Shown here: one piece after another, positions 6,037 through 54,791 of the stretch | How the letters are laid out: the number at the start of each line of letters is the position of its first letter | How positions within the stretch are numbered: position 1 is the first letter of the stretch | DNA from: an uncultured Lachnospiraceae bacterium | GTDB lineage: Bacteria > Bacillota > Clostridia > Lachnospirales > Lachnospiraceae | Reading direction: 5' to 3' | DNA: 64,000 bases | Assembly (NCBI GenBank): GCA_947164865.1 | Contig: CAMUYA010000016.1 | Coordinates: 1,603-65,602, forward strand | Notes under the pieces: model-generated | What the model was told of the DNA's origin: nothing | What the model saw: only the letters and a program-made list of their open reading frames with translations | The model's database searches: none | Translations under genes and position numbers: made by a program

Positions 6037-6084
6037 ATAACTAACGGTAAGATAATAGAGTTTATGATAAAGGGGGTGGCAGTC

Positions 6085-7045: not shown

Positions 7046-10000
7046 TCAAATAAACCTTATTGAAACAAGATCAAAGCTACTGCCGGGAAGAAAGATGAAC
7101 TTCACATCACCTTTTCCGGTGTAGCCGCTCACTTCAAATACCTGCTTCTCGGGGGCGTTACCACTTCCGGCAGACGGCTGCTTTTCCCCGGCGCCGGCCT
7201 TAAATTCAATTATATCTCTCTTTGAATCGGTTCCGTTATCAAAGAGCACATGGATGGTATTTACCGGAATATGCGATACTCCGGTTATCTCAAGCCTGCC
7301 GGCGGCTTTATCTCCAAAGTCCATATCCTTGAATTCAACGGTCACGTTGTTTCCGATGTTATCTATCCGGTCTGCTTTCTTTTCAAAGCTGTCGCCGTAT
7401 ACCGCATCACATTCGCCCGCATTCAAAAGCTCATAAGCCTTTTCCAGCTTCTTAAATGAAAATCCCGCAAACTGTGCCTTATCGTAGGTCACGAAATAAA
7501 GAGAGCTTACTCCCTTAACGCGGTGCCCCAGCTTATATGTCTCGCTCTGATATTCATTCCAGAGCGCAGGCTTTTCATAGACAACATCAGCCAGCATCTC
7601 ACTTCCTTTTGCATCCGGGAGGCCTTCCCATATCTGCATCGGGAACTTTCCGCCCGAAAGCACAAAGAGAGGAATCGTGATCTCGTCACTTCCGTAGCTT
7701 CCGAAGTCGATATCATCATATCCGAATACAGTCCTGTCGCCCCTTTGGGTGGCGATACCGTGCTCGTTGCCGTTACCCAGCTCGCTGTCGGAATAAGTAT
7801 AGAGACCACCTGCAATAAACCCGTAAGGATCAAGCAGTGCCTGCCCGATTCCCTCTGCGGTAAAGCCAAGCTCCGAAATGACCTTCACTGATTCACATCC
7901 GCATTTGGTCATGCAGCGGATCTTGAAGTATCCGTCTCCCAGAGCCTTGACTGTGGCACTAAACCCTTCCGTTTCAACGATCTTTGCTATATTACTGTCG
8001 ATGCCGGCTTCATCCACAGCTTTCCATATGAGTTCGTCGGGATCTACCGCGCCTGCTGCCGCTTCGGGCAGTATCCGGGCATTGACCTTTATCTTGACAT
8101 AATCAGGAGTGAGCACTCTTTCCTCGTCACACGAGAGTGCTATTTTCCTTACCCTCACGCCGTTTATACGTCTTTCCTTTACTTCGCGGCTACCGGCTTT
8201 TGTTTCGCTGCGGTCTTTTAAATCACTGCCGGTATCTTCCCCATCCTTCTTTTCTGAAAATCTCTCGGGAAGCAGTGACATACCCTCGATATCTTTTTTT
8301 TCAGATACTTCAAGGGTTACTTCCGCGCCCTCAAGCCCTTCTGCCGAGGCGGTTACCTTTATTTTGCCTGTTTCATTTCCCACGGCCGCACATATCAGCA
8401 TCTTTCCGGAAAACAGCCTCTTAAAGCTTCCCTTGTATTCTGCATCATCCGCGGAATCGCCGTTATCAAGGCCCGCAAGATATCCTGCTCCCTCCACCTT
8501 CACATTCACAAGATCGGTCGCATTTTCAACCGGATATCCGTCCTTATCCGTGGCGTATACCTCGATAAATGCCATATCTCCTATGCCTGCGGTGAGCTTT
8601 CTTTCCGGCTCATATACATTAAGCACAAGGTGCGCGCTGTCTCCGAAGGAATGGCGCGTCTGCCTTGCTATCTCTTTTCCGCTCTCATCATAGGCAACTG
8701 CTGTGATCTCGCCTGCTCTGTACTGCGTGATGTAATCCCCGGTGAGTACCTTGCCACTAACGTGATCTATCGCCTTCCTTCCGAGGCTTTCCCCGTTCAC
8801 AAAGAGCTCAACCACAGGGGCATTCGATGCAACCCTCACATCGACAGTCTGCCCTTCGTTGAAATCCCAGTATGGAAATACGTGCACGAAGGGATCTTTC
8901 TTTGCATCTGTCCATGCGGACTTATAGATATAGAATGTGTCCTTGGGAAATCCCGCGGTGTCTATCTGCCCGAAATATGAATTGCGGGTGTGATATGGAG
9001 TGGGCTCTCCGATATAATCAAATCCCGACCACAGGAACTGTCCCATTGAAAAATCGTGATCGCGCTCCGCTATTATGCTGTATTCCGCGTTGGGTGCGCC
9101 CCAGCTTGTGGTGGAATTGCCAAGGCTCGAGCACTGCAGATCATCATCCGCAAGCGTGCTCCTCTTATAGGGGAAGCGGTAAATCCCTCTGCTCTGAACG
9201 GTGGAGCTTGTCTCGCTTCCGAAGATATACCAGTCGGGATGCTCCCTGTGATGCTCATCATAAAGCTTCTCGCCGTAGTTATATCCGGCATATTTTAGGA
9301 TATCCGCACATTTCTGTGCGCCCTCCCATGCCATATAATTGGAGCCTATGCTTATTATGGCATTCCCGAGGGGATCGTTTTCTTTTGCCTCTTTCTGAAG
9401 GCAGCGGGTTATATCCTGGCCGTGAGCATCCTTGTGGGTGTCGTATATCTCGTTCCCGATGCTCCAGATAAATATGCTCGGATGATTGCGGTCGCGCCTT
9501 ATCCAGCTGCGCACATCCCTCTCCTGCCACTCCTTGAAAAAGCGGGCGTAGTCGTATTCTGTCTTGCTGCCCTCCCACATATCGAAGGATTCGTCGCAGA
9601 CGAAAAATCCCATTTCATCCGTAAGCTCAAGCAGACCAACTGCGGGCATATTGTGCGAGGTCCTTATAGCATTTACTCCCATGGTGCGAAGTATCTGCAG
9701 CTTTCTTCTCATGGCTGCCTTGTTAAATGCAGCGCCCAAAGCGCCCAGATCGTGGTGCTCGCACACGCCGTTTATCTTGGTATGGACTCCGTTTACAAAA
9801 AAGCCCTTATCCGTATCAAAAGTAAAGCTTCTGAAACCGAAAAGCCTCTCGTCGCCCTCCCCTTTGGGGGTGCCCGGGGCTAATACGATCTTCTTTTTTT
9901 CTTCCTCTGAGTCCTCTGAAGCAGGCTTTACAAGGGAGCTCTCAGTATCTTCATAATCCTCCTCGGGATCAAAGACAGAGAGCCTGCAGTCATAGAGCTT

Positions 10001-10768
10001 GGGATTCTCCGGCGACCATAGCTCCGGCTTTTCGATCTTTTCCGTAAACTCGATCCTTGTTACGCCGCTTGGGTATTCCTGCGCGGTAACTGCCCCTATA
10101 AGCGCGCTGTGGCTCTTTCCGAGCATGGGAAACCATAGAGTAGCCTTAAGCCTTGGACTCAGCTTTCCCACTCCGTTCTTATCATAGTCACCATTCCATG
10201 AGCAGTCGGCTTTGCCGTTAACGAGCTCGGCACTGACCTTTACTTCCCACTCGCCTGTAAGGTCGGTATCCGCAGTTATCTTTTCCCCTGCGGATACCAC
10301 AGGCTTAGCGGAAATATACATGCTGTCCGTTACTATATGGGTGCTTCTGTGCTCGATAAACCATACATCGCGGAATATTCCCGCTCCGCTGTACCACCTG
10401 CTGTTGGGCGAAAGGAAGCTGACCTTCACGATGATCTCGTTATCGCCTTCCTTTAAGAGCTCTGTTATATCAAAGAAAAAGCTGGAATACCCGTATTTCC
10501 ACTCACCTGCCGCCTTACCGTTAACGTAAAGAGCGGTATCCATATAGACGCCTTCGAAATATATCTCGTAGCGCCTCCCCGGCTTTTTCTTTAAGTCAAA
10601 TCTTTTCCTGTAAAATCCTGTTGAATCCTCATACAGATTCCCGGTCTGATAAATCAGCCAGTCATGCGGGAGATTCACTCTCTCAAAACGGGCTTCGTCC
10701 GGGCCCGGAATATCCGAGCCCGGCCTTAGCTTTGTAAACTCCCAGCCGTCATTAAATAGTGTTTTCAT
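7046..10768 (-). CDS. GH2 beta-galactosidase family protein with extra C-terminal carbohydrate-binding-like domains (1240 aa)
   Basis: VNLPHDW, FEGVY, GIFRDVW, GVCEHHDLGALGAA, NAIRTSHN, WSIGNEI, FGSET, FLWSGFDYIGEPTPY. Start MKTLFNDGWEF at 10768, 10 nt after the giant-gene stop; the track start at 10840 overlaps that gene. Confidence 0.92.
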   Translation of the reverse strand: MKTLFNDGWEFTKLRPGSDIPGPDEARFERVNLPHDWLIYQTGNLYEDSTGFYRKRFDLKKKPGRRYEIYFEGVYMDTALYVNGKAAGEWKYGYSSFFFDITELLKEGDNEIIVKVSFLSPNSRWYSGAGIFRDVWFIEHRSTHIVTDSMYISAKPVVSAGEKITADTDLTGEWEVKVSAELVNGKADCSWNGDYDKNGVGKLSPRLKATLWFPMLGKSHSALIGAVTAQEYPSGVTRIEFTEKIEKPELWSPENPKLYDCRLSVFDPEEDYEDTESSLVKPASEDSEEEKKKIVLAPGTPKGEGDERLFGFRSFTFDTDKGFFVNGVHTKINGVCEHHDLGALGAAFNKAAMRRKLQILRTMGVNAIRTSHNMPAVGLLELTDEMGFFVCDESFDMWEGSKTEYDYARFFKEWQERDVRSWIRRDRNHPSIFIWSIGNEIYDTHKDAHGQDITRCLQKEAKENDPLGNAIISIGSNYMAWEGAQKCADILKYAGYNYGEKLYDEHHREHPDWYIFGSETSSTVQSRGIYRFPYKRSTLADDDLQCSSLGNSTTSWGAPNAEYSIIAERDHDFSMGQFLWSGFDYIGEPTPYHTRNSYFGQIDTAGFPKDTFYIYKSAWTDAKKDPFVHVFPYWDFNEGQTVDVRVASNAPVVELFVNGESLGRKAIDHVSGKVLTGDYITQYRAGEITAVAYDESGKEIARQTRHSFGDSAHLVLNVYEPERKLTAGIGDMAFIEVYATDKDGYPVENATDLVNVKVEGAGYLAGLDNGDSADDAEYKGSFKRLFSGKMLICAAVGNETGKIKVTASAEGLEGAEVTLEVSEKKDIEGMSLLPERFSEKKDGEDTGSDLKDRSETKAGSREVKERRINGVRVRKIALSCDEERVLTPDYVKIKVNARILPEAAAGAVDPDELIWKAVDEAGIDSNIAKIVETEGFSATVKALGDGYFKIRCMTKCGCESVKVISELGFTAEGIGQALLDPYGFIAGGLYTYSDSELGNGNEHGIATQRGDRTVFGYDDIDFGSYGSDEITIPLFVLSGGKFPMQIWEGLPDAKGSEMLADVVYEKPALWNEYQSETYKLGHRVKGVSSLYFVTYDKAQFAGFSFKKLEKAYELLNAGECDAVYGDSFEKKADRIDNIGNNVTVEFKDMDFGDKAAGRLEITGVSHIPVNTIHVLFDNGTDSKRDIIEFKAGAGEKQPSAGSGNAPEKQVFEVSGYTGKGDVKFIFLPGSSFDLVSIRFI

Positions 10769-10778
10769 AGTTACCTGA

Positions 10779-13700
10779 TCATTCCCTGAGTTTCTTAAAT
10801 ACTGATACTGCTGTCTCGTTGTCGGTCTTTCCGATGGCATCCTCTAAGCCTAATACGGCAAGCGTACACTTTGCAAGGATCCTCGGCTCCTCGAAAGGAT
10901 TGTAATCACTTGCCGAGAAGAGAATAGCGTGAACCATATTTAGCCTTATAAAGTCCACAAGCTCCTCATCGCGCTCAAATCCCTGCGCGTTGCGGATAAG
11001 GTCAAGCTGCCTGCTGCCCACAACGATATTGCCGTTCACATCCTTCTTGGTCTTGTGCTTAGATACATAGCTTTCCGGCTTGTCATGATAGCGGAACTTT
11101 TCCTCCACCTGCTCCCTTGCAGCGTAGATGTCCTTGACCGTTGCGTTTCCGGCACCCTGATAATAATCTCTCACGGTGTTCTTATCGGACATGCAGTGCC
11201 AGAAATAATTAGCAAGATCAACAACCTTATCGATGATCTTGGAGGCTCCCTCCACACCGGCATATTCGGCAACCTTGCCTGCCACGGTTCCTGCAGCCTT
11301 GGATATCTTCCGGGACTCGATATTCTTTGTCATATCGGTACCGCCGCTGACAAGAGCCTTATTGTTGTTCAGCACTTCGGTAAGAGATACCTTCTTTTTC
11401 TGCGAAACATTGAGGTTCTCTATCTTTGACTTATCCTCTGCGCTCTTTTTTGCGCCCTCATCCTTTGCATCACCAAGCTTTTTGATGTTGATGGAGGCCT
11501 CTACAATATCCTTGAAATCTCCGATCATGGAGATAACGGGGTTAACATAGGTCTTTGCCCAGTCGAGAAGGTCACCTGTTTCTTCAGCGGCCTTGAGCAG
11601 CTTTGTGACATTATTCTTCACAAAGTCGGGAAGAAGGTCGTCAACCTTCTGTTCGAAGGCTTCAGCTTTATCGGTATACCACTCTCCGATGGCCTTGGTG
11701 CTGACAAAGCCCTTCATGTATTTCTCGATATATCCGTCGATCTTCTCAAGCTGCTCATCGTTTTCCGCAAAGGCATCTATGGCAGCCTTGGCATCTGCCG
11801 CTCCCTTTATCGCCTTACCGGAGAACCTGAGCACCATATCAACATACTTATAACCTGTGATCTCGTGGTTGACAATCTCGGTAGCTTCCACGCCTTTAAG
11901 GGTTTCTGACAGCCCGTCGGAGAGTTCCTTTTCCTCTTCCTTATCGTCCAGTACATCCTTGTACGCGCCTATTACGCTCTTGATGTTTTTACCGAAGGTC
12001 TTAAGCACCTCCTTCTGTTCCTGGAAAGAACCGGCCAGATCGTATATGCCTCTGAGGTCGTGGTTCTTTCTCTTGAAGGCTTCTTCTTTTTCCTTCTTGA
12101 TCCTTGCCTCAAACTGCTCCTGAGTCTCGCCGTCCTTGGGCTTTTCCTCCTCGACCTCCATATCCTCTACAAGGTCGTCTTCCTTCTCCTTATCCTTCTC
12201 AAGCATCTCATTTGCCTGATCGTGAAGGAAGTTTGCGGTCTTCTGGGATACGATATAATCGGCAAATCCCACCGCGGTATCGAAGAACCCGAGATTATCC
12301 TTGATCTCGTCATAGCCCTCCCTTGCGAGGAATCTCATAAATCTGGAGCCCGTATGATGCAGGTTTACCCTGAGGAACGAATTGTCCATCTTGAACTCCC
12401 CGTTCTTCTGCTTATCCCCGAGGGACTCATATACTGCCTGATCACCCGATACCATCTTGCTTTCGGAAGTGGTTCTGGTAACGAACTGAAGAGCTCTCTC
12501 AAAAAGCTTCCAGTCAATAACCGTCTTCCTGTCGGTGACAAGGAGCTGGTTGTTTACATAGAGATTTTTATTTGCCCAGTTGATATCAACGTTTTCGAAC
12601 TTCATATCATCGTTGACTTCTCTGGAAAGAAGACTCTCAAAGGCAGCCATGCAGGCTCCTTCGCCAAGCTCTGTGTCATTTCCGTTCGCCAGATATTCAT
12701 CTATCAGAGCATCTCTGTCAACGGGGTTAACGAAATCGCGCTCAGCCAGTCCGAATACATTCTTGTACAGGTTCTTCTGCGATACGTCAAGGATGTCTCT
12801 GTTCTCGAGAGCCTTGATAAACAGCTTCTTCTCGTTGGCATTAAGCTTATAATAACCGGTGAGCAGATCATCCGCATTGGACTGTCCGTTATTGAGCTTA
12901 TCCTCCTCAAACGCCGAGATGATCATGTTCTCAAAGGTCTCGACAGAGGAAGCTCCCGTCTCCATAAGAGATTTATGCTGACTGTAGAACCTTGCGGAAT
13001 TGGTCTTTTTATCCTTTTTCTCTTCAGCGTCCTGCCTGAGCAGGTTTCTGGACTGCCTTACGGCAAACTTCTTGATCCTCTCTCTGTCGATCTCTGCAAG
13101 GAAATCCATCGCTGCATCGAGAAGATCCCAGTCAACTACCCTGATCCTGTTTATTGAGGATTCAACAAAATCCGATTCCCTGAGCTCTCCTTCGGGAAGC
13201 TCCACATCGTCCCTTACCTGGAAGCTGAGAAGCGATGCCAGAGCTTTCTGTACGAATTCGGGATCCGCTGCGTCTCTGAGAGCTTCAAGCCTTCCCTCTT
13301 CACTCAGAAGCTTTTCGTACATCTTGAATCTTCCGGCAGAATCCACATGGGGAACCTTCTTGGTCTTTTCATCCTTTCCCGCGCTGGAAAAGTCAAGTAT
13401 GGTACGATTCTGAAGGATGTAGATAAGCAGGCCTCTCTGGCTGCTGCTCATCTTGTCGAATCTTGCCTTAACATTCTCGACCTTGACCCGGTTATGCAGA
13501 AGCTTTGATACCTTTGTACCCACTCTTCCTACAAGGCCCTGTTTGTCCTCTCTCTCAATATCCGTTTGGGAGTAATCCCCCAGGAACCTGTAGAGATCAC
13601 TCTGCGACTTGACATCAGCCTTATGTAGTGTCTTTGACTGCTGCCCGATATTGACAGACTCTGTGGCTTTGTTCTTTCTGTATCTGTCAGCCACCTTCAT

Positions 13701-16700
13701 GTTCTCTTCGGCGGCATTCATCCGGTCAAAGTCCTTGGGTCTTAACAGGTTCTTCTTCTTTTCGACCTTCTCAACAAACTGAAGTGCAGTCTTAAAGAGC
13801 TCCTCGTCTCCGGTGAGACGGAAGTTTTTGTATCTGAGGGTGACTGCGCGGATACTGCGGGCATAATCCACCTGCAGATCACCCGGCTTTCCGGCGATGT
13901 AATCGAGGATCTGCTTTCTCTCGGTCTTTATCACATCCGCCTTCATTCCGTATACTGCTCTCTGCGTTCCTCTCTCTTCGGGTTTGGATGCGTAAAGAGC
14001 TATCGCAAATATCTTTCTCTGCTCGGAATCGAGCTCGTTGTACTTCTCAACCAGCCACTTGTCGCTGGTGATACCTATCATGTGCTCAAAGTCCTTCCTG
14101 GTCTTTACTCCGGGATAGATATTCTGTTCTTCAAAATCCTTGTTGCTTACGGAATCGCCCTTTACAAGCAGAGCTTCTATGTTAAAGGAGGTGGATATCC
14201 TTTCCTTTACTTCCTCCGCAAAGGCGGCAGCGTCAAGCTCTCCCTCGCTGGCGGTGATGATGCTTCCGGTAAAGTACTCCCTGAGACCTCCCACATAGCG
14301 CGACCTTGAAACCACGTCAAGATCCTTGGTGTAAGCATCCTCTGCAAGCACTTTATCGATGACGCCGTATGCTTTTTCCGCACAGCTCAGGTACTTTTTC
14401 TGTGCATCGATCATACCCGCGAAAGCCTTCTGATCTCCGTTCAAGGATATGATATATGCTCTCATCTTCTCGCAGATATCTCTGTGAGCCAGAATAAGTC
14501 CGCTGTCGTTAAAGCTCATCTTTTCGAGCTCCGAGAGCTTCACATAGAAGTTCTTAAACTTGGATGTGAGCTTTTTAAGATTATCTCCCGTTCCGGTCTT
14601 CTCTTGGAATTTAGCCGCATAGACGAGGTAAAGGTCCATTGCTTCCTCGGGGATTTTGGCTTCGCCCGCCGCGTATTTGTAAATTCCCTTCAGTCTTTCG
14701 GCCTCGATCTTTACATCATTGTCTTCTCCCAGCACCCAGTCCGCAGCTCTGTCAGCCTTGGTAAGGAATGAGCTGTTAAGCCTTACATATTCATCAAGGC
14801 AGTCCGCAAGGATATCGGGATAAGTGATGTCCCCCTCTTTCTTGAACATCTGCTTTGCTTCCGCGAAGCGGCTCTTATCCTTTTCTTCTCCCTTGGATCC
14901 GACCTTGACCTCACCCTTTTTGCTCTGCGCGGCATAGATGAGCGATGTCTTAATCTGTCCCAGTTCCTTAAGGGTATCAAGCTTACCCGCAAAGAGCTTT
15001 TCGTTATACAGAGTGCGTCCTTCCGACTTCTTGACGGCAACAGCTGTCTGCGCATCCTGCATCTGCTTGATACGCTCCTTGGCCTCCGCTATGCTCTCGG
15101 GCCTGAATGAAACATCTTCCTCAAGCGCAGTTTTCTTGGAGCTCAGGAACTCTTCAATGGTCTTGTTCAGATTCTTTTTAAACTTCTTCGGATCTCCCAT
15201 AAGGGCAGCATCCCTGATGTAATTCCTGAAATCCTCAAGAGAGCTCTGAAGCTTTCTCTGTTGCTCAAAAGTCATGGAGCTGATGGTCTTTCTGACATCG
15301 ATATCAGCCTCAAATCCCTGTGAAAGCACTTCTCCAAGTTCCTCACTCACGCTGTCGGTGTGGGTGAGCACGTACTTTAAGAATGTCTCCTGCGCCAGGG
15401 AGTCATTTGCTTTGAAATTATCTATCTGGTTTTTGTAGTATTCCTCGAGGGTTCCCTGAAGGTTTGCAGCCTGGATAGTATCGGAGTTTTCGAGCAGATG
15501 ATCGTTCATCTGCTTAATGAGACCGTTTGCCTTCCTTTTGCCTCTGTCAAAGGCATCCGCCACACTGTCAAGCTTTGCGGTGAGTCCGAAAGTTACAACA
15601 TTTCCGATCTTGAACTTTAAGCTTCTTCCTTCTTTCTTGAGCTTATTTCTCTCCTTTACTTCCTCCTCATTGATCTTATCAAACCAGGGGTTTTCTTCCT
15701 CTGCTTTGAAATAATATGTAAGGCTCTTTTGGGCGTCTCCGGTTCCCTGCTCGAGGTTTGAAAGAATGGATTTGGTGTTCTGTTTGCTCTGGGTCAGATA
15801 GAGCCCTGTAAATTCCTCAAGCTTTCTGCTCCAGTACTTGACCGCCATTTCGGCATCATTTTCATTCAGTACCTTTTCGTACTCCTTATATTCAGCCTTA
15901 TCCTCATTAAGGTAATTCTTAAGATTATCCTCTGTAAAGAATTCTCCGACAAAGGAATACTTCTGATCCTTGATGGCCATTCCAAGTGGCGCAAATCTGC
16001 TATAGAGCTTTTCTATGCATTCGATCGCCACGGTCTCGGCACTGTCCAGAATATCAATGGTAAGCTCGGGGATACCCATGATGGTGTCAACAATAGGCTC
16101 CAGCAAACCATCCTTGTATTCTGCCAGCAGCTTTCTTCTCTCTTTATAGAGCATGGATGTCTCAAAGAGCTCGTCACTCTGCTTTCCGTCATTGACGCTT
16201 ATAAGGCTGTGGAGCATACTTCCAAGCTGATCCAGATTCTGCACGCCAAAGGCTTCCTGATTAAGTCTCTGCTCCTTATAGGACAGCTGAGCTTCATCTC
16301 CCGCACTGAACTTGGATATCTCGTCGGAGATTGCCCTGATCTCTTCATCAAGTTTCTTTGATTGAGTATTATTGTCGTAGATCTTTTTATTTGCTGCGCT
16401 GATGAGGTCATTGCATTCCATTATTACGCGGTCTGCCTCCCTGACTTCATCATGAGCTTTGTACTCTTTCTGCCTACATTCTTTAAGCTGTTCGTCCAGT
16501 TCCTTTAGTTTGGCATCATGCTCTTCTTTTTTGGCTTTCCTCTCCGATTTTTTTAAATTTTTTATTTTATCCCTGTATTGTGATAATTCCGCCTCTTTGC
16601 TTTCCCTCAGCTTTGTTGCTTCCTGGTGTTTCTTCCTTAGTTCATCGATGCTGCCCTCAGCTATTCTCAGCTTTTTCTTGGCATCGGCAGTATCCTTATC

Positions 16701-19700
16701 AAAATTGTCATTCTCTTTCTGAAGGGCATTTTTCCTGTCCTCCAGATCTTTTATCTTCCCCTGCTTTTTGGGAAGCTCTGCCAGAAGACCTTTCTCGTTC
16801 TGGTAATGCGTATCTCTCATTTTGAGCACAGTCCTCGCCAGCTTATTTCGAAGCTGCGGCTGAAGCTCCGGAGGATAATCCTTTATCATATCCTCGAGGA
16901 CTTGTGTCCTGTCATATGCATAGTTCGCGATACTGAAGAGATTATCCCTGTATTCCTCCTCCGGTTTACTGCCGTATGTAAAGAAATACTCCTGGAACTC
17001 CCCACCATGCCCCATAAGTATGTCCTGCACGCCGAACATACACATTTCGTATATGAAGTCTGTTACCTTGATCTGATCTTTTTCGACTTTCTTTTTCTTC
17101 TTCTTTTCGATAGCCTCGAGCTCATCTTCCGCATCAGGCTCTTTCACTCCCATAAAAGCTTCCCTGATGTCGTCAAGGAACTGTTCTTCACCGCCCTTGG
17201 CTGCAAGCTTATCATCCGTCACCACATTGGCGTTTCCCTTAACCTTTACGGTAAAGAATTTGAATTTCTTTTTGTCACCCTGAATAGCCTGCGCAAGATC
17301 CATCAAGCTTCCGTCGGGATTGTCTGAACTGAGGGCGCTCTTAAGCCATTTCCTCACCTGCATTACAGCCTCGGGGCCCAGCTCCTCAAGCCTTTTCCAT
17401 ACCTCCGAGGCGCGGTTTGCATGCGCGGCGCGCTTTCTCATCCAGTCCTTATCCCATCCGAGAAATGACTGTGCAAGAGTCTTTTCCCTGTCGGGCATAT
17501 CCTCATAGCGGTAACGTATCTTTCCGTCACGCATTTCCTTATCCGTGCCGATGGTGACAAGAAGTTTCTTTCTTACAAGCTTATTCTGCTGAGTCTGTTT
17601 GTTATACTCCGCCCTGAACACATTCTTTATATCGTCTTTAGAGGCTCCGCTTCTCATTATCTCAAGAAGGGCACGCTTCTGCACCTCGGGCGTCACCTCA
17701 TATTTTATGAGCATTTTCTTTATTTCTTCGTCTGCTCCTCCGGCGGTAATGCTCTCATGGAGATATATCATCATGTTTTCGATCTGGTCGAACCCAAGAT
17801 CATCCAATCCGTCGATTCCCTTTACATCCTTCATGAAAGGAAATCTCTCCCTGATAACGGGACTCTTAAACAGGATCACGTTCAGGTTGTCACTCAGGAA
17901 TTTTCTGATCCCCCGGTCGGGGATCACTGCCGAGAACTTGTCTCCGTTAATGAGCTGCTTTATCATTTCCCCAAAGGTGAGAGTATCCACCCGGGGTTCT
18001 TTAACTGCAGCCTTCCTCTTTCCGCAGTACTCATAACAGGATATCTTCTCCCCGCCTTCATCCTCATCAAAATACACCTTTGTGGATCTTTCAACAACAG
18101 CGGCAAAGCCTTGGATCATTACGTCATCGGACTCTCTTTTCAGGCTACCGACCTTGTCTGTAAGGAACTTGGAGCATGCCTTGTACAGCTTTTTCCAGCC
18201 CTGTTCCGACAGAGTCTTTCCTTCCAGCGCCTTTTCCATTCCTGCAAGATAGAGCGTGACGACCTCCAGCTCCCGTTCCATCAATTCCTGCTGATTTCCG
18301 GCTTCATCCCACTTGTCCTTCCTTGAAAGGAGATACTTTTCAACGGCAGGTCTCATCACTTCGGAGAAAGGTCCGCTTATCCTGTTCTTATATGCCTCAT
18401 CATAAGCCTTCTGCTTTTGGGCATATTTTCTGTTGGTGAGCGCCAGTCCGTTAAGGTATCTTTCGGCATAGTCCTTGATCACTCTGTTACCCGCAAAAAG
18501 TGCCTTATCTCCGATAAAATTACGCAGATCCTTATAAATATCGTCGGCGGCGAATCTGCCGAATCTTTCCACGACCATACGGCGCAGGAGTCTGTCTGTT
18601 CCCTGCGCACGTCTTACCATATTTGTCAGATCCTCATCCTTGAGTCCCAGTGCCTCTGTCTCTTCATCGGGGCCAAGCAGCTTAAGGAGAGCCTTGCTCT
18701 TGGCCAGTACGACGCCTCTGCCTCCAAGATCCGCCTTCTGCAGGATGGACCATCTGCCCGCTGCCTTGTAAAAAGGTGCTATATCCCCCTTCTTGATCGC
18801 CATGGTACTCTTTTTGAGAGTATTTTCCACGCTCTTACCCACCAAAAGGTTATTTCCGAACACGGCCTTATGCATATCCACACAGTATTTCTTAACCCAT
18901 GGTACTCCCGCATCCAGAAATGATATGAGCATCTCCCGCGACTGCTTGTTCTTTTCCTGCCCACGGATACTGTTTATCATTCCCTTTACAGCCATCCTGT
19001 CAAGAGCCTTAAGGTTTTCTTTTACGATCCCGTTAAGCTCTGAAAGCTTGGCTCTGTACTGTTCATCCGTATACAGATCATGTTCCTTATCGGTGAAAAG
19101 CTCGTTGTTGATAAAGGCACTGAATTCCGTAAGCTTCCAGTCGCTATCGATCTCCTTTTCCTCTCCGTCATCGCCTGCCCATTTCCCGCTGATAACCATC
19201 TGCCTTCTGGCATCGATGGCGTTCAGTCTTCTCTGCTTTTCTGCCTGGCGGGCTTCTCTTATTTCGTCTGCCTTGACATTATCTCTGGCGATATTCTGCT
19301 GTGCGGTATGCTTTGCTTTTTCCTTTACGTGACCGGTCACCTTTTCCCATGTGAAATACTTTCCGTAACCCTTGATATTACGGATCTCTTTCATCTCTTT
19401 ATCAAGCTTTGCACGAAGCTTCTTTATCTCGTTTGCATAGCCGTTGCGGGTTCTCTCGCTGATACCCTCATCCCGGGAATGATCGATATACATTCTGATC
19501 AGACGATAGTATTTACGCATCTTGTTCATGGAAATATCTATCGCATATTTATCGTCATCGACCATATAAGCCTTAATGTATTCTTCCCTCGCCTCCGCAT
19601 CAAGCTCGATATACTTTTTCTCAAGCTTAAGCAGCTCACCGGACTTAAGGATCCCGTGACCCATCATGTTGTCGAAGTCCACTTCGGCCATCTTGCGGTT

Positions 19701-20000
19701 TCTTATATCCTTGCTTCTGGCGACGCTCTTTTTTCTGTCCTTTGCACTGTATTTTGAATTCTTTTTTTCAAGTGCCCTGGCTTTCCTGTCATCAATAGTC
19801 TGATCCTCTTCGCTTTTATTGATCTTCCGGAACTCGGAAAAGAGTGCCTCAACTGTCCAGCTTTTGTTCAGGGCTATATCTTTATTCTCATAGAACTTGT
19901 ATGTGTTAACCTTTTCGGCCCCGATCATAAGGCCCCGGTCGCCCTCCTCAATATGAGTTTCCTTAACCTTTATTTTGTTGAGCTCGTCAAAATCTGCCAT
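10779..20000 (-). CDS. Giant 3073-aa Lys/Glu-rich, largely helical protein of unknown function; no signal peptide or anchor
   Basis: Uninterrupted 9.2 kb ORF with RBS GAGG. Long heptad coiled coil near aa 1070-1230, three internal repeats near aa 1985-2505. I recognise no catalytic family. Confidence 0.9.
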   Translation of the reverse strand: MADFDELNKIKVKETHIEEGDRGLMIGAEKVNTYKFYENKDIALNKSWTVEALFSEFRKINKSEEDQTIDDRKARALEKKNSKYSAKDRKKSVARSKDIRNRKMAEVDFDNMMGHGILKSGELLKLEKKYIELDAEAREEYIKAYMVDDDKYAIDISMNKMRKYYRLIRMYIDHSRDEGISERTRNGYANEIKKLRAKLDKEMKEIRNIKGYGKYFTWEKVTGHVKEKAKHTAQQNIARDNVKADEIREARQAEKQRRLNAIDARRQMVISGKWAGDDGEEKEIDSDWKLTEFSAFINNELFTDKEHDLYTDEQYRAKLSELNGIVKENLKALDRMAVKGMINSIRGQEKNKQSREMLISFLDAGVPWVKKYCVDMHKAVFGNNLLVGKSVENTLKKSTMAIKKGDIAPFYKAAGRWSILQKADLGGRGVVLAKSKALLKLLGPDEETEALGLKDEDLTNMVRRAQGTDRLLRRMVVERFGRFAADDIYKDLRNFIGDKALFAGNRVIKDYAERYLNGLALTNRKYAQKQKAYDEAYKNRISGPFSEVMRPAVEKYLLSRKDKWDEAGNQQELMERELEVVTLYLAGMEKALEGKTLSEQGWKKLYKACSKFLTDKVGSLKRESDDVMIQGFAAVVERSTKVYFDEDEGGEKISCYEYCGKRKAAVKEPRVDTLTFGEMIKQLINGDKFSAVIPDRGIRKFLSDNLNVILFKSPVIRERFPFMKDVKGIDGLDDLGFDQIENMMIYLHESITAGGADEEIKKMLIKYEVTPEVQKRALLEIMRSGASKDDIKNVFRAEYNKQTQQNKLVRKKLLVTIGTDKEMRDGKIRYRYEDMPDREKTLAQSFLGWDKDWMRKRAAHANRASEVWKRLEELGPEAVMQVRKWLKSALSSDNPDGSLMDLAQAIQGDKKKFKFFTVKVKGNANVVTDDKLAAKGGEEQFLDDIREAFMGVKEPDAEDELEAIEKKKKKKVEKDQIKVTDFIYEMCMFGVQDILMGHGGEFQEYFFTYGSKPEEEYRDNLFSIANYAYDRTQVLEDMIKDYPPELQPQLRNKLARTVLKMRDTHYQNEKGLLAELPKKQGKIKDLEDRKNALQKENDNFDKDTADAKKKLRIAEGSIDELRKKHQEATKLRESKEAELSQYRDKIKNLKKSERKAKKEEHDAKLKELDEQLKECRQKEYKAHDEVREADRVIMECNDLISAANKKIYDNNTQSKKLDEEIRAISDEISKFSAGDEAQLSYKEQRLNQEAFGVQNLDQLGSMLHSLISVNDGKQSDELFETSMLYKERRKLLAEYKDGLLEPIVDTIMGIPELTIDILDSAETVAIECIEKLYSRFAPLGMAIKDQKYSFVGEFFTEDNLKNYLNEDKAEYKEYEKVLNENDAEMAVKYWSRKLEEFTGLYLTQSKQNTKSILSNLEQGTGDAQKSLTYYFKAEEENPWFDKINEEEVKERNKLKKEGRSLKFKIGNVVTFGLTAKLDSVADAFDRGKRKANGLIKQMNDHLLENSDTIQAANLQGTLEEYYKNQIDNFKANDSLAQETFLKYVLTHTDSVSEELGEVLSQGFEADIDVRKTISSMTFEQQRKLQSSLEDFRNYIRDAALMGDPKKFKKNLNKTIEEFLSSKKTALEEDVSFRPESIAEAKERIKQMQDAQTAVAVKKSEGRTLYNEKLFAGKLDTLKELGQIKTSLIYAAQSKKGEVKVGSKGEEKDKSRFAEAKQMFKKEGDITYPDILADCLDEYVRLNSSFLTKADRAADWVLGEDNDVKIEAERLKGIYKYAAGEAKIPEEAMDLYLVYAAKFQEKTGTGDNLKKLTSKFKNFYVKLSELEKMSFNDSGLILAHRDICEKMRAYIISLNGDQKAFAGMIDAQKKYLSCAEKAYGVIDKVLAEDAYTKDLDVVSRSRYVGGLREYFTGSIITASEGELDAAAFAEEVKERISTSFNIEALLVKGDSVSNKDFEEQNIYPGVKTRKDFEHMIGITSDKWLVEKYNELDSEQRKIFAIALYASKPEERGTQRAVYGMKADVIKTERKQILDYIAGKPGDLQVDYARSIRAVTLRYKNFRLTGDEELFKTALQFVEKVEKKKNLLRPKDFDRMNAAEENMKVADRYRKNKATESVNIGQQSKTLHKADVKSQSDLYRFLGDYSQTDIEREDKQGLVGRVGTKVSKLLHNRVKVENVKARFDKMSSSQRGLLIYILQNRTILDFSSAGKDEKTKKVPHVDSAGRFKMYEKLLSEEGRLEALRDAADPEFVQKALASLLSFQVRDDVELPEGELRESDFVESSINRIRVVDWDLLDAAMDFLAEIDRERIKKFAVRQSRNLLRQDAEEKKDKKTNSARFYSQHKSLMETGASSVETFENMIISAFEEDKLNNGQSNADDLLTGYYKLNANEKKLFIKALENRDILDVSQKNLYKNVFGLAERDFVNPVDRDALIDEYLANGNDTELGEGACMAAFESLLSREVNDDMKFENVDINWANKNLYVNNQLLVTDRKTVIDWKLFERALQFVTRTTSESKMVSGDQAVYESLGDKQKNGEFKMDNSFLRVNLHHTGSRFMRFLAREGYDEIKDNLGFFDTAVGFADYIVSQKTANFLHDQANEMLEKDKEKEDDLVEDMEVEEEKPKDGETQEQFEARIKKEKEEAFKRKNHDLRGIYDLAGSFQEQKEVLKTFGKNIKSVIGAYKDVLDDKEEEKELSDGLSETLKGVEATEIVNHEITGYKYVDMVLRFSGKAIKGAADAKAAIDAFAENDEQLEKIDGYIEKYMKGFVSTKAIGEWYTDKAEAFEQKVDDLLPDFVKNNVTKLLKAAEETGDLLDWAKTYVNPVISMIGDFKDIVEASINIKKLGDAKDEGAKKSAEDKSKIENLNVSQKKKVSLTEVLNNNKALVSGGTDMTKNIESRKISKAAGTVAGKVAEYAGVEGASKIIDKVVDLANYFWHCMSDKNTVRDYYQGAGNATVKDIYAAREQVEEKFRYHDKPESYVSKHKTKKDVNGNIVVGSRQLDLIRNAQGFERDEELVDFIRLNMVHAILFSASDYNPFEEPRILAKCTLAVLGLEDAIGKTDNETAVSVFKKLRE

Positions 20001-20025: not shown

Positions 20026-20051
20026 CACCGGGCAAAAAATGCTGCCCGGTG
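20026..20051 (-). other. Intra-operon stem-loop between the GNAT gene and the giant gene
   Basis: CACCGGGCA-8 nt-TGCCCGGTG, perfect 9-bp GC-rich stem. Confidence 0.55.
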
Positions 20052-20061
20052 GCTGTATAGT

Positions 20062-20895
20062 TTACTGTGCCATCATCTCACCGAATTCATCCAGCTCCTC
20101 GACAGACCAGCCGTTCCAGGTTGCAATACATACCGTCTGTCCCTCGCCCTTATCTCCAAAGAAACCGTCCGCCATTCCGGCTGCCTCGGGTGTCACGGCT
20201 GAAAACCAGATATCCGCATCCGGATACAGATCATCTGCAACCTTGCAAGCATGACCAAGCAGTTCTCCCACCACGATCGCATTCCTTGCCTGTGTGAAAA
20301 GGAACGAAAGCTCAAGCTCCTTTTTACCGTGTTTCCTGAAAAACACCGCTCCGCTTACCTTTCCGTCACTTACGGCAGCGAGGCACATATTCTTTTCAAG
20401 AAGAGGATCCTCAATGTCGACAAATCCTTCGAAGCCTTCCTCCGATGCCGCCCTGATAAAGGCTGTCCGTTGCTTTGCATCAAGCGAAAAGAATTCCTTC
20501 ACACCCGGGCTTGCCTTTTTCAAGGTCTTCCAGCGACTGTTCTTTTTTCTGGCATCCGCGGTGATTGTAAATATTTCCTTGTTCTCCCTCACCGTAAAAT
20601 TCGGCTGTGCCTCAAAAAACTCCGCAAGATCCTCACTTTCATCCGCAAGGAAGGATGCCTGCACCGGAACAAATCCTTCCGAACGGGCGATAATGCTCAA
20701 AGCGTTCTGGAGCAGCATGCTTCCTATACCCTTCCGTCTCTCGCTTTCTTTCACAAAAAGGTATGTGATATTGACCCCTTCAGACAGTTCAAGGCAGAGC
20801 TCAGCGATGAGCCCTGCCTTTCCGTTTCTTACTCCGAGTCTTATTTCACCTTTTTCTTCCGAAACACTGAGTTTAACTACTTCTGGTCTCTCCAT
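20062..20895 (-). CDS. Tandem GNAT-fold protein (N-terminal domain keeps the acetyl-CoA motif, C-terminal domain degenerate)
   Basis: ITYLFVKESERRKGIGSMLL is GNAT motif A (R-x-x-G-x-G); 277 aa; resembles 53879-54733. Confidence 0.75.
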   Translation of the reverse strand: MERPEVVKLSVSEEKGEIRLGVRNGKAGLIAELCLELSEGVNITYLFVKESERRKGIGSMLLQNALSIIARSEGFVPVQASFLADESEDLAEFFEAQPNFTVRENKEIFTITADARKKNSRWKTLKKASPGVKEFFSLDAKQRTAFIRAASEEGFEGFVDIEDPLLEKNMCLAAVSDGKVSGAVFFRKHGKKELELSFLFTQARNAIVVGELLGHACKVADDLYPDADIWFSAVTPEAAGMADGFFGDKGEGQTVCIATWNGWSVEELDEFGEMMAQ

Positions 20896-20928: not shown

Positions 20929-23007
20929 CTATTCTTTGTCTGTCTTTGCCGCATCGATCTCGCGCTGCGCGATGTCATTGGGAGCCTGCTCATATCTTGC
21001 AAACTCATACGAGAACACGCCGCTTCCCCTTGTCATGGAGTAGAGCCTTGTGTCGTATTCATAGAGCTCAAGATAAGGGATCTCTGCAGTGATCTCGGTG
21101 TTGCCGTTTCCGACGGGATTCATTCCCAGCACCTTGCCTCTGCGCTTGTTGAGATCACCCATTACATCTCCGGTGAAATCATCGGGTAAAGTGACCGTAA
21201 GGGTTGCAATGGGCTCGAGAAGCACGGGATCGGAATTCATGAATCCCTGCTTGAATGCCTGCTCTGTAGCGACCTTGAATGCAAGCTCGGATGAGTCAAC
21301 CGTGTGATAACTTCCGTCGTAGAGAGTAACCTTTACTCCGGTAACGGGGTATCCTGCAAGAGGACCTGCCTTGACTGATTCCGCAACACCCTTTTCGACT
21401 GCGGGGAAGTAGTTCTTTGGAACCGCACCGCCCACAACCGTCTGTTCAAATACATACTGGCGCTCTGAGTCATAGGAAGGCTCGAGATAGATCTTGACAT
21501 GTCCGTACTGTCCGTGTCCGCCCGACTGCTTTTTGTATTTGTACTCGGTATCGGATTTCTTGCGTACAGTCTCCTTGAAGGCAATACGTGGCTTTTCGAG
21601 CACGATATCGACTTTGTATTTGTCGGACAGTATGCTCTGAACCACATCGAGCTGCTGACCGCTTATACCGTAAAGGAGTGTCTGTCCGTTTTCGGCATCG
21701 TTTACTGTCTTGAGTGTAAGATCCTCTGCGCACATCTTGGCAAGTGCCTGTGAGATCTTGTCCTCATCGCCCTTGTTCTTGGCCTTATAGCTTCTGTAAA
21801 CGTAGGGCTTTGAGATAGCTGCGCGCAGGTAGGTAACGGGATTCTTTCTGGTGGAAAGTGAATCCGTGGTCTGGGTGACTGCCAGCTTTGCAAGAGCGCC
21901 TAAATCTCCTGCGTGAAGCTCTGCAACTTCCTCGGCCTTTCCTGCGCTGAATATGTAGAGCTTTCCAATCTTTTCATCCGCATCACGGTGATAGTTGAAA
22001 AGCACATCATCAGGCTTGAGCACGCCTGAATTAACCTTGATAAGTGAATACTTTCCAATGAAAGGATCCACGATGGTCTTGTATACGTAAGCCGACTTTG
22101 GCTTAGAGAAATCATAATCCGCCTCAAATACTTCGTTGTTGGTGGTATTGATTCCCGCACATTTACATCTGTCGGGGCTGGGGAAGTATTTGATGATGTC
22201 GGCCATGAGAGTATACATTCCTCTTGCAAGTGTATTGGATCCCATGAGCACCGGCACGATGGAGCCGTCAAACACGCCGACTCTCATTGCAGCTCTGATC
22301 TCGTCCTCGGAGAATTCATCTCCTCCGAAGTATCTTTCCATAAATTCTTCGCTGGTCTCGGCTACTGCCTCTAAAAGTACGTCACGGCAAATCTTGAGGT
22401 TTTCCTGTGAATAATCGGGAACGTCGAATTTATCGACCTTTCCCTCGGCATTCCAGCGTTTAGCCTTCTGCTGGATAACATTAACGTATCCTACAAATTC
22501 TTCGTTCTCGCGGATGGGAAGGTGGAACGGAGCTATTCTCTTGCCGTAAAGATCCTGCAGATCCTTAACTACATTCTTGAAGCTGGCCTTGTCGATATCC
22601 ATCTCGGTAACGAATACCATTCTCGGAATCTTTTTCTTTTCGCACATTTCCCATGCACGCTTAGTTCCCGCTTCGATACCGGCCTTACCTGACACAACTA
22701 TGATAGCTGCATCGGCCACCGAGAGTGCTTCCTCTGCCTCTCCTATGAAATCAGGTGATCCGGGAGTGTCAAGGAGATTGATCTTGTAATCCTCCCAGGG
22801 GATCGCGATCAGTGTAGTGTTGATGGATATTCCTCTCTTGACCTCTTCCTTGTCATAGTCACTGAGAGTGTTTCCGTTTGCGGTGCTGCCCATGCGTCCG
22901 GTTACCCCTGCCAGGTACGCCATCGCTTCCGCAAGCGAAGTCTTTCCACAGCCTCCGTGCCCCAAAAGCACTACGTTTCTGATCTTGTCAGTAGTAAATA
23001 CGTTCAT
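20929..23007 (-). CDS. fusA: Elongation factor G paralogue (EF-G2/fusA2 type)
   Basis: GHGGCGKTSL, RGISI, DTPG, KKQSGGHGQYG, DGSYHTVDSSELAFK, LLEPI, GDVMGDLNKRRG. Start at ATG 23007, 9 nt after AAGGAGG. Confidence 0.92.
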   Translation of the reverse strand: MNVFTTDKIRNVVLLGHGGCGKTSLAEAMAYLAGVTGRMGSTANGNTLSDYDKEEVKRGISINTTLIAIPWEDYKINLLDTPGSPDFIGEAEEALSVADAAIIVVSGKAGIEAGTKRAWEMCEKKKIPRMVFVTEMDIDKASFKNVVKDLQDLYGKRIAPFHLPIRENEEFVGYVNVIQQKAKRWNAEGKVDKFDVPDYSQENLKICRDVLLEAVAETSEEFMERYFGGDEFSEDEIRAAMRVGVFDGSIVPVLMGSNTLARGMYTLMADIIKYFPSPDRCKCAGINTTNNEVFEADYDFSKPKSAYVYKTIVDPFIGKYSLIKVNSGVLKPDDVLFNYHRDADEKIGKLYIFSAGKAEEVAELHAGDLGALAKLAVTQTTDSLSTRKNPVTYLRAAISKPYVYRSYKAKNKGDEDKISQALAKMCAEDLTLKTVNDAENGQTLLYGISGQQLDVVQSILSDKYKVDIVLEKPRIAFKETVRKKSDTEYKYKKQSGGHGQYGHVKIYLEPSYDSERQYVFEQTVVGGAVPKNYFPAVEKGVAESVKAGPLAGYPVTGVKVTLYDGSYHTVDSSELAFKVATEQAFKQGFMNSDPVLLEPIATLTVTLPDDFTGDVMGDLNKRRGKVLGMNPVGNGNTEITAEIPYLELYEYDTRLYSMTRGSGVFSYEFARYEQAPNDIAQREIDAAKTDKE

Positions 23008-23091
23008 GCCCAAATTCCTCCTTCTCGAGTTATAAAATTTGTACCCTAATCACTATTCTAACACATTTTTCTGTCTTTTAATATCCTGTTT

Positions 23092-53878: not shown

Positions 53879-54733
53879 CTACAGCGCTTCCTCCAGTGTC
53901 CAGTTGAGATAAAGAGTCGCGTTCCATACTTTCTCGGAAGAAACGGCCTTTTCGCCCAATAACTTTTCAACTATTTTTTTAGAGCTTGCGTTGATATAGG
54001 GAACGGTGATCATCTTGTAATCGCCGTATTCCTCTATGCCCTTGTCCACAGCATATTTGAGCATGTACATGAGCTCTGCACCGTTCTCGGTCGTCTCGGC
54101 CCACGCAACCACAAGATGATCATCCTCCTCACCGATGATAAGGCATGCCGGAGAATTATCATTCCTGTCGCTTTTGACAACGCAGCTGAGCTTTTCGTTC
54201 AAAAGTCCGCTGTCTGTAAAATGTCTTAAGTGGGGATGTTTCCCCAATATTGAATTCTTCACGCTGCTTAAGCTCTCGGAAAGCGATACCACATTCTCGG
54301 TCGATATTCCCGACACAAACTTCGATGAAGCAATATCTCCGAGTGAGAATGTGTATGATCCGTGTTCTTCATCTTCCACAAGTTCAAATTCCAGATACTG
54401 GATAAATGCCCTCAGATCGGCACCTTCTTTCTCGTTTTCAACAAATGAAAAAACCAGCCTGTATATGTTATCGACAGAAAAAAGCATTGTGAGCGTCTGA
54501 CTCATAAGCTCAGTTCCGTATCCCTTTCTGCGGTGTTCGGGTTTTACGAAAAGGGAAATGATCTCTGCTTCACCGTCCACACCGGGGTCGGCAACTATGG
54601 CTCCTACCGGTTCATCGTCTTTCTTCAGACCGATTGCCACACTGTCACCCGTTCTCAGAGCCACTATCCCCTCCCAGGTGATAAGCTCATAAAAGCTTTC
54701 TTTCTGTTCTACATTAAGATCTATCAGCTCCAT
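53879..54733 (-). CDS. Tandem GNAT-fold protein, paralogue of 20062-20895
   Basis: EIISLFVKPEHRRKGYGTELM is motif A; 284 aa; RBS GAGG. Confidence 0.75.
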   Translation of the reverse strand: MELIDLNVEQKESFYELITWEGIVALRTGDSVAIGLKKDDEPVGAIVADPGVDGEAEIISLFVKPEHRRKGYGTELMSQTLTMLFSVDNIYRLVFSFVENEKEGADLRAFIQYLEFELVEDEEHGSYTFSLGDIASSKFVSGISTENVVSLSESLSSVKNSILGKHPHLRHFTDSGLLNEKLSCVVKSDRNDNSPACLIIGEEDDHLVVAWAETTENGAELMYMLKYAVDKGIEEYGDYKMITVPYINASSKKIVEKLLGEKAVSSEKVWNATLYLNWTLEEAL

Positions 54734-54791
54734 ATATTATCCTCGCAATTTGCATCTGTTTGCCATGACAGTAACATTATGAAACAGCTCA

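Follow-up and report, generated by a model that had tools for sequence, protein, structure and literature searches.

A two-gene cassette encoding a 352-kDa helical protein and a tandem GNAT accompanies contractile injection systems in Lachnospiraceae and may supply a giant payload

What extracellular contractile injection systems (eCIS) carry as payloads is mostly unknown outside a few Gram-negative models, and the choice and loading of cargo is an open question, which also limits the use of these systems as protein-delivery tools. Cargo of the Photorhabdus virulence cassettes (PVC) carries polar N-terminal packing signals (PMC9054023). Afp18 of the Serratia entomophila antifeeding prophage (Afp) is a 264-kDa signal-less toxin with a polar 20-residue N-terminal packing signal and a poor AlphaFold2 (AF2) model, and the largest cargo shown to load has a mass of 291 kDa (bioRxiv 10.1101/2023.11.13.566157). 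Among rumen bacteria, eCIS have been reported in ~1% of genomes (bioRxiv 10.1101/2025.07.29.667580). Here, we analyzed a window of 64,000 nt (the whole stretch of DNA under study) of an uncultured Lachnospiraceae bacterium (GCA_947164865.1, contig CAMUYA010000016.1, positions 1,603-65,602, forward strand), in which a gene encoding a 3073-aa protein (hereafter the giant) is preceded by a gene encoding a tandem GNAT (the partner). The giant occurs strictly together with a PVC/Afp-type injection system, of which it may be a cargo.

The GNAT and giant genes constitute a discrete 10.1-kb two-gene cassette, a precise insertion with an EF-G-like gene on one side and a GH2 gene on the other. The components of this region are (positions of the window):

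20929..23013, minus strand: EF-G-like gene, upstream, outside the module (Pfam)
20062..20895, minus strand: partner gene, encoding a 277-aa tandem GNAT (Pfam GNAT over aa 36-85; AF2 pLDDT 91.4; Foldseek)
20026..20051, minus strand: GC-rich stem-loop of 10 pairs, with a poor U-tail, between the GNAT stop codon and the giant ATG
10779..20000, minus strand: giant gene, a single uninterrupted ATG-initiated open reading frame (ORF) encoding an all-helical protein without a recognized domain (3073 aa, 352 kDa, pI 6.1)
7046..10768, minus strand: GH2 gene, downstream, outside the module (Pfam GH2 domains; alignment with empty-site relatives)

The stop codon of the EF-G-like gene is separated from the GNAT start by 32 nt, and the giant stop codon from the true GH2 start by 10 nt. 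The latter start is the ATG at 10768, as indicated by alignment with relatives, and not the mechanical ORF start at 10840, which would overlap the giant gene by 62 nt. In four congeneric genomes, G016, G017, G008 and G011 (G-numbers denote genomes, with G000 being the source genome, L-numbers loci and C-numbers contigs), the GH2 gene comes immediately after the EF-G-like gene, i.e., the site is empty, and the gene order GH3-uxuA-uxuB-EF-G-GH2 is common to these relatives and the window. Genome G011 has its own cassette, 36% identical, at another locus. Carriage by a prophage or another mobile element was ruled out, given the housekeeping flanks and the short junctions, and no integrase gene was found among the annotated genes flanking the cassette. 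A ribosome-binding site (GAGGA) is located 8 nt ahead of the giant ATG at position 20000. The stem-loop could lower read-through into the 9.2-kb giant gene, possibly as an attenuator; at other loci, 0-25 nt separate the GNAT and giant genes.

The source genome (99.6% complete) contains a PVC/Afp-type injection locus (G000:C13, ~26.8-42.7 kb), in which genes encoding Pvc16_N, a sheath, a gp19-type tube, two CIS_tube proteins, a Phage_base_V spike and Baseplate_J were distinguished, flanked by unannotated ORFs of 1420, 1243 and 1276 aa. An AAA ATPase or a tail fibre was not identified at this locus, where Pfam coverage of the ORFs was incomplete. Using Pvc16_N (PF14065) as the marker of the system, we found that within the genus (a set of 25 genomes) marker and giant are both present in exactly the same genomes, G000, G007, G011, G015 and G023 (5/5 versus 0/20; Fisher test, p 1.9e-5; this and the following p values were computed without phylogenetic correction). 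Among 201 genomes sampled across the genera of the family, the marker was detected in 20 and the giant in four, all of them among the 20 (p 7e-5). All of the other giant-carrying genomes are also marker-positive (25/25), which gives 34/34 giant-carrying genomes against a background of ~10%; the marker is absent from the control genomes (0/14). Since 16 of the 20 marker-positive genomes of the family sample lack the giant, we consider it an optional accessory of the injection system. The GNAT family of the partner was found in nine genomes of the same sample, of which eight are marker-positive (p 1.9e-8) and contain 2-10 copies each; in G122, G191, G223 and G235, such copies share a contig with Pvc16_N and are located within ~65 kb of it. 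The upstream surroundings of the injection locus of the source genome (G000:C13, 26.8-68 kb; L079, L080 and L054) also contain an unannotated 830-aa ORF and genes for a MORN protein, for a two-component system and for a double GNAT-family protein of 515 aa.

A sequence-only reading of the window, made earlier without database searches, had named the upstream neighbour of the giant a tandem GNAT. This identity is correct, because the AF2 model is confident and tandem-GNAT enzymes are its best structural neighbours in Foldseek: 2wpw (CBG of the clavulanate pathway), 5kf1 (glucosamine N-acetyltransferase of C. acetobutylicum), MshD (1ozp), VipF of Legionella (6wqb) and Eis, with E values of 4e-11 to 1e-7 and TM-scores of 0.5-0.63. 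The partner resembles these enzymes in having two GNAT folds per chain and a CoA-binding loop in only one domain. It differs from them in sequence (12-15% identity only) and in the placement of the loop, which the N-terminal domain retains and many clades have lost completely; moreover, its family is multi-copy and, with eight of the nine carrier genomes of the family sample bearing the marker, almost confined to injection-system-bearing Lachnospiraceae. The acetyl-CoA loop of domain 1 reads RRKGIG and domain 2 is devoid of it. Across the partner family, the loop (R-x-x-G-x-G/A) is (i) intact in domain 1 of the clade of the window, (ii) degenerate in L004, L005, L037 and L044, (iii) degenerate or absent in L022, L025 and L040, (iv) absent from the Butyrivibrio clade and group g2, and (v) never present in domain 2 of any member. 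As the loop has been lost in many clades, the conserved role of the partner, judged from these motifs, is probably not catalysis, and on the same grounds a universal activating enzyme was ruled out.

The pairing of the two genes is conserved. In five independent contigs that differ in their flanks, the giant gene has immediately upstream a same-strand gene for a GNAT-like protein of ~280 aa. Among the 35 giant loci with enough upstream DNA, 31 have a same-strand ORF of ~270-330 aa ahead of the giant, and 28 of these 31 ORFs are relatives of the partner, 22 of them by direct matches to a profile hidden Markov model (HMM) and six by hhalign (one at 94.6% and a group of five at 77%, colinear over 228 columns). 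Three giant loci have a response regulator in the position of the partner, and in two a partner-like gene is located directly downstream. At L021:2-5947 and L014:2-3142, a very large K/E-rich ORF, which is not a GNAT, directly precedes the giant gene (at least 1982 and at least 1047 aa, respectively, reaching the contig end in both cases); neither these ORFs nor a K/E-rich ORF following an Ntox11 pair in L075 show detectable similarity to the giant.

Further members of the GNAT family occur elsewhere. The source genome contains ~9 copies, mostly beside proteins without a Pfam match, and those at L051 (contig C5), L052 (C3) and L053 (C11) lie beside large unannotated proteins; their surroundings include a 1029-aa orphan with a 738-aa TraX/7TM/GGDEF protein, a 2057-aa ABC1/kinase-like protein followed by a weak GNAT paralogue, and a cluster of orphans of 633, 687 and 640 aa. 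A multi-pass membrane protein of ~340-385 aa with a C-terminal GGDEF-like motif (D-x-ETGF-x-NR), accompanied by a GNAT-family paralogue, was found 0-7 kb from the giant in eight loci of several clades (L019:11320-13328, L041:3837-4910, L021, L028, L035, L020, L001 and L002). In the source genome, such a membrane-protein/GNAT pair is present at L050:5073-6946, on a contig other than that of the giant.

The partner family is also associated with a predicted toxin, Ntox11, as seen in the window itself:

53879..56378, minus strand: Ntox11 gene with a tandem-GNAT gene, the second such pair in the window

This pair comprises a gene encoding a 528-aa Ntox11 protein (54792-56378, minus strand; E 3.6e-45) and, directly 3' of it, a gene encoding a 284-aa tandem-GNAT paralogue (53879-54733, minus strand), which gives a full-length match to the iterated partner HMM (9e-15). 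The same order, an Ntox11 homologue followed by a partner-family GNAT, was found in three of three other contexts (L075, L076 and L077), and within the genus Ntox11 is present in four of the five genomes positive for Pvc16_N and the giant. Zhang et al. (2012; PMC3482391) placed Ntox11 among the toxins that PVC-type systems deliver, its immunity protein being unknown, and the tandem GNAT may be this missing immunity protein or another kind of partner. The Ntox11 predicted toxins (PF15521) resemble the giant in being signal-less, in occurring in the same genomes and in being paired with the same ~280-aa tandem-GNAT family. They differ in size (about 500-650 aa), in the lack of homology to the giant and in the gene order, the GNAT being placed after the toxin, whereas it usually precedes the giant. 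In the window, the Ntox11-GNAT pair is followed by a MatE transporter gene. In L076 (5483-8938), it is followed by genes for an AAA protein of 784 aa and for a 977-aa protein bearing an ADPrib_exo_Tox (ADP-ribosyltransferase exotoxin) domain, a possible multi-payload island.

The giant had been described as an orphan in the sequence-only reading, a label that has to be withdrawn. When a profile of aa 1950-3073 was searched exhaustively with HMMER, the result was 182 clusters of relatives (grouped at 50% identity), including 114 with E values below 1e-30; a word-indexed search had returned nine relatives. Full-length members are nearly all 1900-4100 aa long and helical, and 16 diverse relatives gave no Pfam match. 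A scan of one genome per species identified 39 giant loci, nearly all in rumen or gut Lachnospiraceae, with two metagenome-assembled genomes carrying Oscillospiraceae or Ruminococcaceae labels. The carriers include the cultured Butyrivibrio sp. Su6 and AE2015 (WP_103868001.1 and WP_022775797.1), in which the protein is annotated as "hypothetical protein". The parts common to the whole family are aa 1250-1350, 1650-2600 (repeats included) and 2850-3073, and the N-terminal third varies most. Literature searches turned up neither an account of this family nor one of a link between tandem GNATs and injection-system payloads. What is new is the protein family, with its unmatched fold, extreme size and type of partner, and the kind to which it would belong, an injection-system accessory or payload, is a known one.

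The giant ORF is intact, as noted earlier, and the presumption that it is under selection was borne out. Comparison with a 90%-identical homologue (L011) gave a dN/dS of 0.21, with purifying selection over the whole length, which indicates that the reading frame is kept by selection. The dS between these two genes is 0.4-1.4 in aa 600-1800 (window ~14600-18200) and 0.02-0.16 at both ends, which reveals a mosaic, with the middle of the gene swapped by recombination. No paralogue of the giant was found within the source genome. Lys, Glu and Asp together account for 30% of its residues, and Cys, Trp and Pro are scarce. The earlier statement that it has no Sec signal, LPxTG motif or transmembrane anchor also holds: the best 19-residue Kyte-Doolittle mean is 1.11, far under the level of a transmembrane helix, and no Sec/Tat signal or membrane anchor was recognized, as judged by this maximum hydropathy and the absence of LPxTG. 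A motif scan found neither Walker A nor HExxH, and no other NTPase or nuclease motif. There was no match in Pfam, PHROGs, NCBIfam or PADLOC, nor in the Protein Data Bank (PDB) by sequence (phmmer). Likewise, three profiles of the giant family gave no PDB match below 0.01, except for one DUF2098 chain (E 0.003): the N-terminal profile, at aa ~270-331 of the giant (window ~19008-19193), weakly matches a 93-aa archaeal protein (8s7x_L), possibly by chance.

The following regions of the giant were distinguished:

16821..20000, minus strand: N-terminal region, aa 1-1060, the most variable across the family (conservation profile); first 20 residues polar-rich (12/20)
16311..16790, minus strand: highly charged helical stretch, aa 1071-1230, a clade-specific insert
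14151..16283, minus strand: middle region, aa 1240-1950, with universally conserved blocks 1250-1350 and 1650-1950 and no PDB profile match
13755..14132, minus strand: repeat A, aa ~1957-2082 (hhalign A-C 93.2%, A-B 83.6%)
13071..13487, minus strand: repeat B, aa ~2172-2310, with motifs LQxRTxLD, LLSFQ and DW..L..A..F (hhalign B-C 99.3%; AF2 pLDDT 75-93)
12450..12890, minus strand: repeat C, aa ~2371-2517, the best-conserved part of the family (AF2 pLDDT 85-95)
11529..12305, minus strand: acidic linker, aa ~2566-2824, of low conservation (AF2 pLDDT <50)
10782..11528, minus strand: C-terminal long-helix bundle, aa ~2825-3073, with helices of 30-47 residues (AF2 pLDDT 75-95)

Some features of this layout had been anticipated by the sequence-only reading. 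The three repeats were confirmed by hhalign with a 29-sequence alignment; they are diverged, ~140-200 aa each, with R, D, S and W residues invariant in repeat B, and no further copies were detected outside aa 1957-2517. The Ala/Gly stretch was located as a helix of aa 2902-2934 (window 11199-11297) inside the C-terminal bundle, and the final ~75 aa rank with the best-conserved parts of the giant. The ~160-aa stretch at 16310-16790, proposed to be a coiled coil, is a highly charged helix (54% charged residues in aa 1101-1200), present in one clade and absent from distant relatives; a canonical coiled coil was not called by a crude heptad scan. The basic N-terminus found weak support, the net charge being -2 over aa 1-60 and +4 over aa 1-120. 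The AF2 model, which covers aa 1950-3073 and was built from the same number of aligned sequences, has a mean pLDDT of 70.6 and a pTM of 0.63; the repeats (75-95) and the C-terminal bundle are confident and the acidic linker is not. The Foldseek search proposed earlier as a check, run with this model against PDB and BFVD, yielded no significant match (best E 0.16 in PDB and 0.04 in BFVD, the latter being tape-measure-like noise), i.e., the modelled fold is unmatched in these two libraries.

Of the described systems, Afp18 is the closest functional analogue. The giant resembles Afp18 and the PVC payloads Pnf and Pdp1 in having no Sec signal and, going by the 12 polar residues among its first 20, a polar N-terminus, Afp18 in its very large size and in a poor or unmatched AF2 model, and Afp/PVC cargo in general in occurring only where a PVC/Afp-type system exists and in being optional for the machine. 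It differs in that no sequence or fold similarity to Afp18 or PVC cargo was detected, in its greater mass and Gram-positive rumen host, in its gene being far from the structural operon, next to or 3' of which Afp/PVC cargo genes usually lie, and in its dedicated tandem-GNAT partner, a component not described for such cargo. Because the giant is optional to the system and Afp18 is its closest analogue, we favour, by a little over even chances, the reading that the giant, served by a tandem GNAT as its dedicated partner, is a candidate cargo or effector of this system, similar to Afp18 in logic. Its absence from most marker-positive genomes would be expected of an optional payload. The precise insertion, the different locus in G011 and the mid-gene recombination mosaic support the view of an accessory cassette. 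The earlier proposal of a translocated or pore-forming effector stands as far as an effector-like protein without a Sec signal is concerned, on indirect but strong evidence (the occurrence restricted to Pvc16_N genomes and the Ntox11-paired GNAT family); its pore-forming part has no support, as discussed below.

According to this payload reading, the giant would be made in the cytoplasm from the two-gene cassette, would enter or attach to the phage-tail-like particle with no Sec signal involved, and would then be delivered to a target cell. The partner may act as an immunity (neutralizing) factor or as a loading adaptor or chaperone, or as a modifying enzyme in the clades keeping the acetyl-CoA loop. 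What the data show directly is the ORF and its family, the constant pairing with the partner, the insertion as a cassette, and an injection-system locus with which the giant strictly co-occurs; we infer the loading, the delivery, any toxic activity and the role of the partner. Several observations weigh against the payload reading. No toxic or enzymatic domain was recognized by Pfam in the giant or in the 16 diverse relatives, and the modelled third has no fold match in the searched libraries. At 352 kDa, the giant exceeds the largest cargo reported to be loaded. In the polymorphic toxins (Zhang et al., 2012), a conserved N-terminal trafficking part is followed by a variable C-terminal toxin and then by immunity genes; in the giant this is reversed, the C-terminus being the conserved part and the partner usually lying upstream. 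In the source genome, the giant (contig C16) is not beside the injection locus (C13), and in the closest case observed the giant and Pvc16_N are 42 kb apart on one contig (G191). Finally, the co-occurrence statistics ignore shared ancestry, yet the carriers span several genera and the cassette is found at different loci.

A broader and more tentative view, about which we are rather doubtful, is that tandem GNATs, many of them pseudo-enzymes, constitute an unrecognized cargo-module system for the contractile injection systems of Gram-positive rumen bacteria. Every GNAT copy would then tag and serve a single signal-less payload, either as its immunity factor or as its loading adaptor. The payloads would include the Ntox11 proteins, several orphans of 600-1400 aa and the 352-kDa giant, and might be aimed at ciliates of the rumen or at rival bacteria. 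If so, the giant would be the largest injection-system payload known, with a new fold. More generally, the gain is a family of giant proteins, so far without annotation, that depends for its presence on an eCIS-type system, together with a simple genomic marker, the ~280-aa tandem GNAT, which appears to flag payload genes scattered over the genome; the cultured, non-pathogenic Butyrivibrio strains allow testing. Should the giant be loaded, it would set a new upper cargo size; otherwise, it would represent a type of accessory that has not been described for these machines. The module may also be relevant to antagonism in the rumen between bacteria and protozoa or among bacteria.

The co-occurrence data would also fit a giant that is tied to the injection system and not injected, for instance a cytoplasmic scaffold, tether, or assembly or release factor for the particles, comparable to the membrane-anchoring factors of cytoplasmic contractile injection systems, with the tandem GNAT and the 7TM/GGDEF-like membrane protein as regulators or anchors. 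A very long helical protein with a charged-helix spacer, a conserved C-terminal third and no catalytic motif would suit such a role, as would the GGDEF-like membrane protein and GNAT paralogue close to the giant in eight loci. We nevertheless consider it unlikely: the machine does not need the giant, as seen in the marker-positive genomes without it, the giant is encoded away from the structural operon, and members of the partner family are also paired with Ntox11, which is predicted to be a toxin rather than a structural component. The distance from the injection locus and the phylogeny-blind tests would in turn suit a giant unrelated to the injection system, whose co-occurrence with it reflects shared ancestry or niche, and which acts in a cytoplasmic system of its own (an acetylation-regulated structural protein or an unrecognized defence or conflict module). 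The patchy, cassette-like distribution also suits defence islands, and purifying selection over the whole giant agrees with this. Such an explanation appears less likely still, given the presence of the marker in every giant-carrying genome, the spread of carriers over several genera with the cassette at different loci, the lack of a PADLOC match for the giant or either GNAT and of NTPase or nuclease motifs in the giant, and the loss of the acetyl-CoA motif in many partners, which is contrary to an acetylation-centred function.

The pore-forming part of the earlier proposal corresponds to a self-sufficient pore-forming or self-translocating toxin, freed by lysis or through some unknown exporter, with the GNAT as its activator in the manner of the acyltransferase of RTX toxins. 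The C-terminal bundle of long helical hairpins with its Ala/Gly-rich helix and the order of an acyltransferase-like gene and a giant gene, which recalls rtxC-rtxA, speak for it, and ClyA, AhlB and colicin Ia are among the noise-level Foldseek rows of the aa 1950-3073 model (E 1.3-1.9, probability ≤0.11). However, all such pore-former matches have E values above 1 and probabilities of at most 0.23, the giant contains no hydrophobic segment and lacks RTX, CROP and glucosyltransferase domains, the partner belongs to the tandem GNATs rather than to the HlyC-type acyltransferases and in many clades is a pseudo-enzyme, and no WXG100 protein exceeds the cut-off in the genome. We regard this as very improbable.

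Several known classes were also rejected. The RTX/MARTX toxins with RtxC/HlyC share with this locus the arrangement of a small acyltransferase-like gene followed by a gene for a giant signal-less protein, but the locus lacks RTX repeats, a type I secretion system (T1SS), an HlyC-family enzyme and any sign of acylation; membership of this class, characterized by GGxGxD repeats, an HlyC-type acyltransferase and T1SS genes, was dismissed because the giant and its 16 relatives gave no Pfam match and the partner is a tandem GNAT. A large clostridial toxin was ruled out by the absence of Pfam or PDB sequence matches (glucosyltransferase, cysteine protease, CROP). A substrate of a type VII secretion system (LXG/WXG100) is unlikely, with no LXG match in the giant and one sub-threshold WXG100 match in the nearly complete genome, in which EssC/EssB were not searched. 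No PADLOC model of a known anti-phage defence system matched the giant or either GNAT. Outside the cassette, between ABC transporter genes and the GH2 gene, the window also contains a gene (6064-6939, plus strand) encoding a fusion of a helix-turn-helix domain with Uma2, a putative restriction endonuclease.

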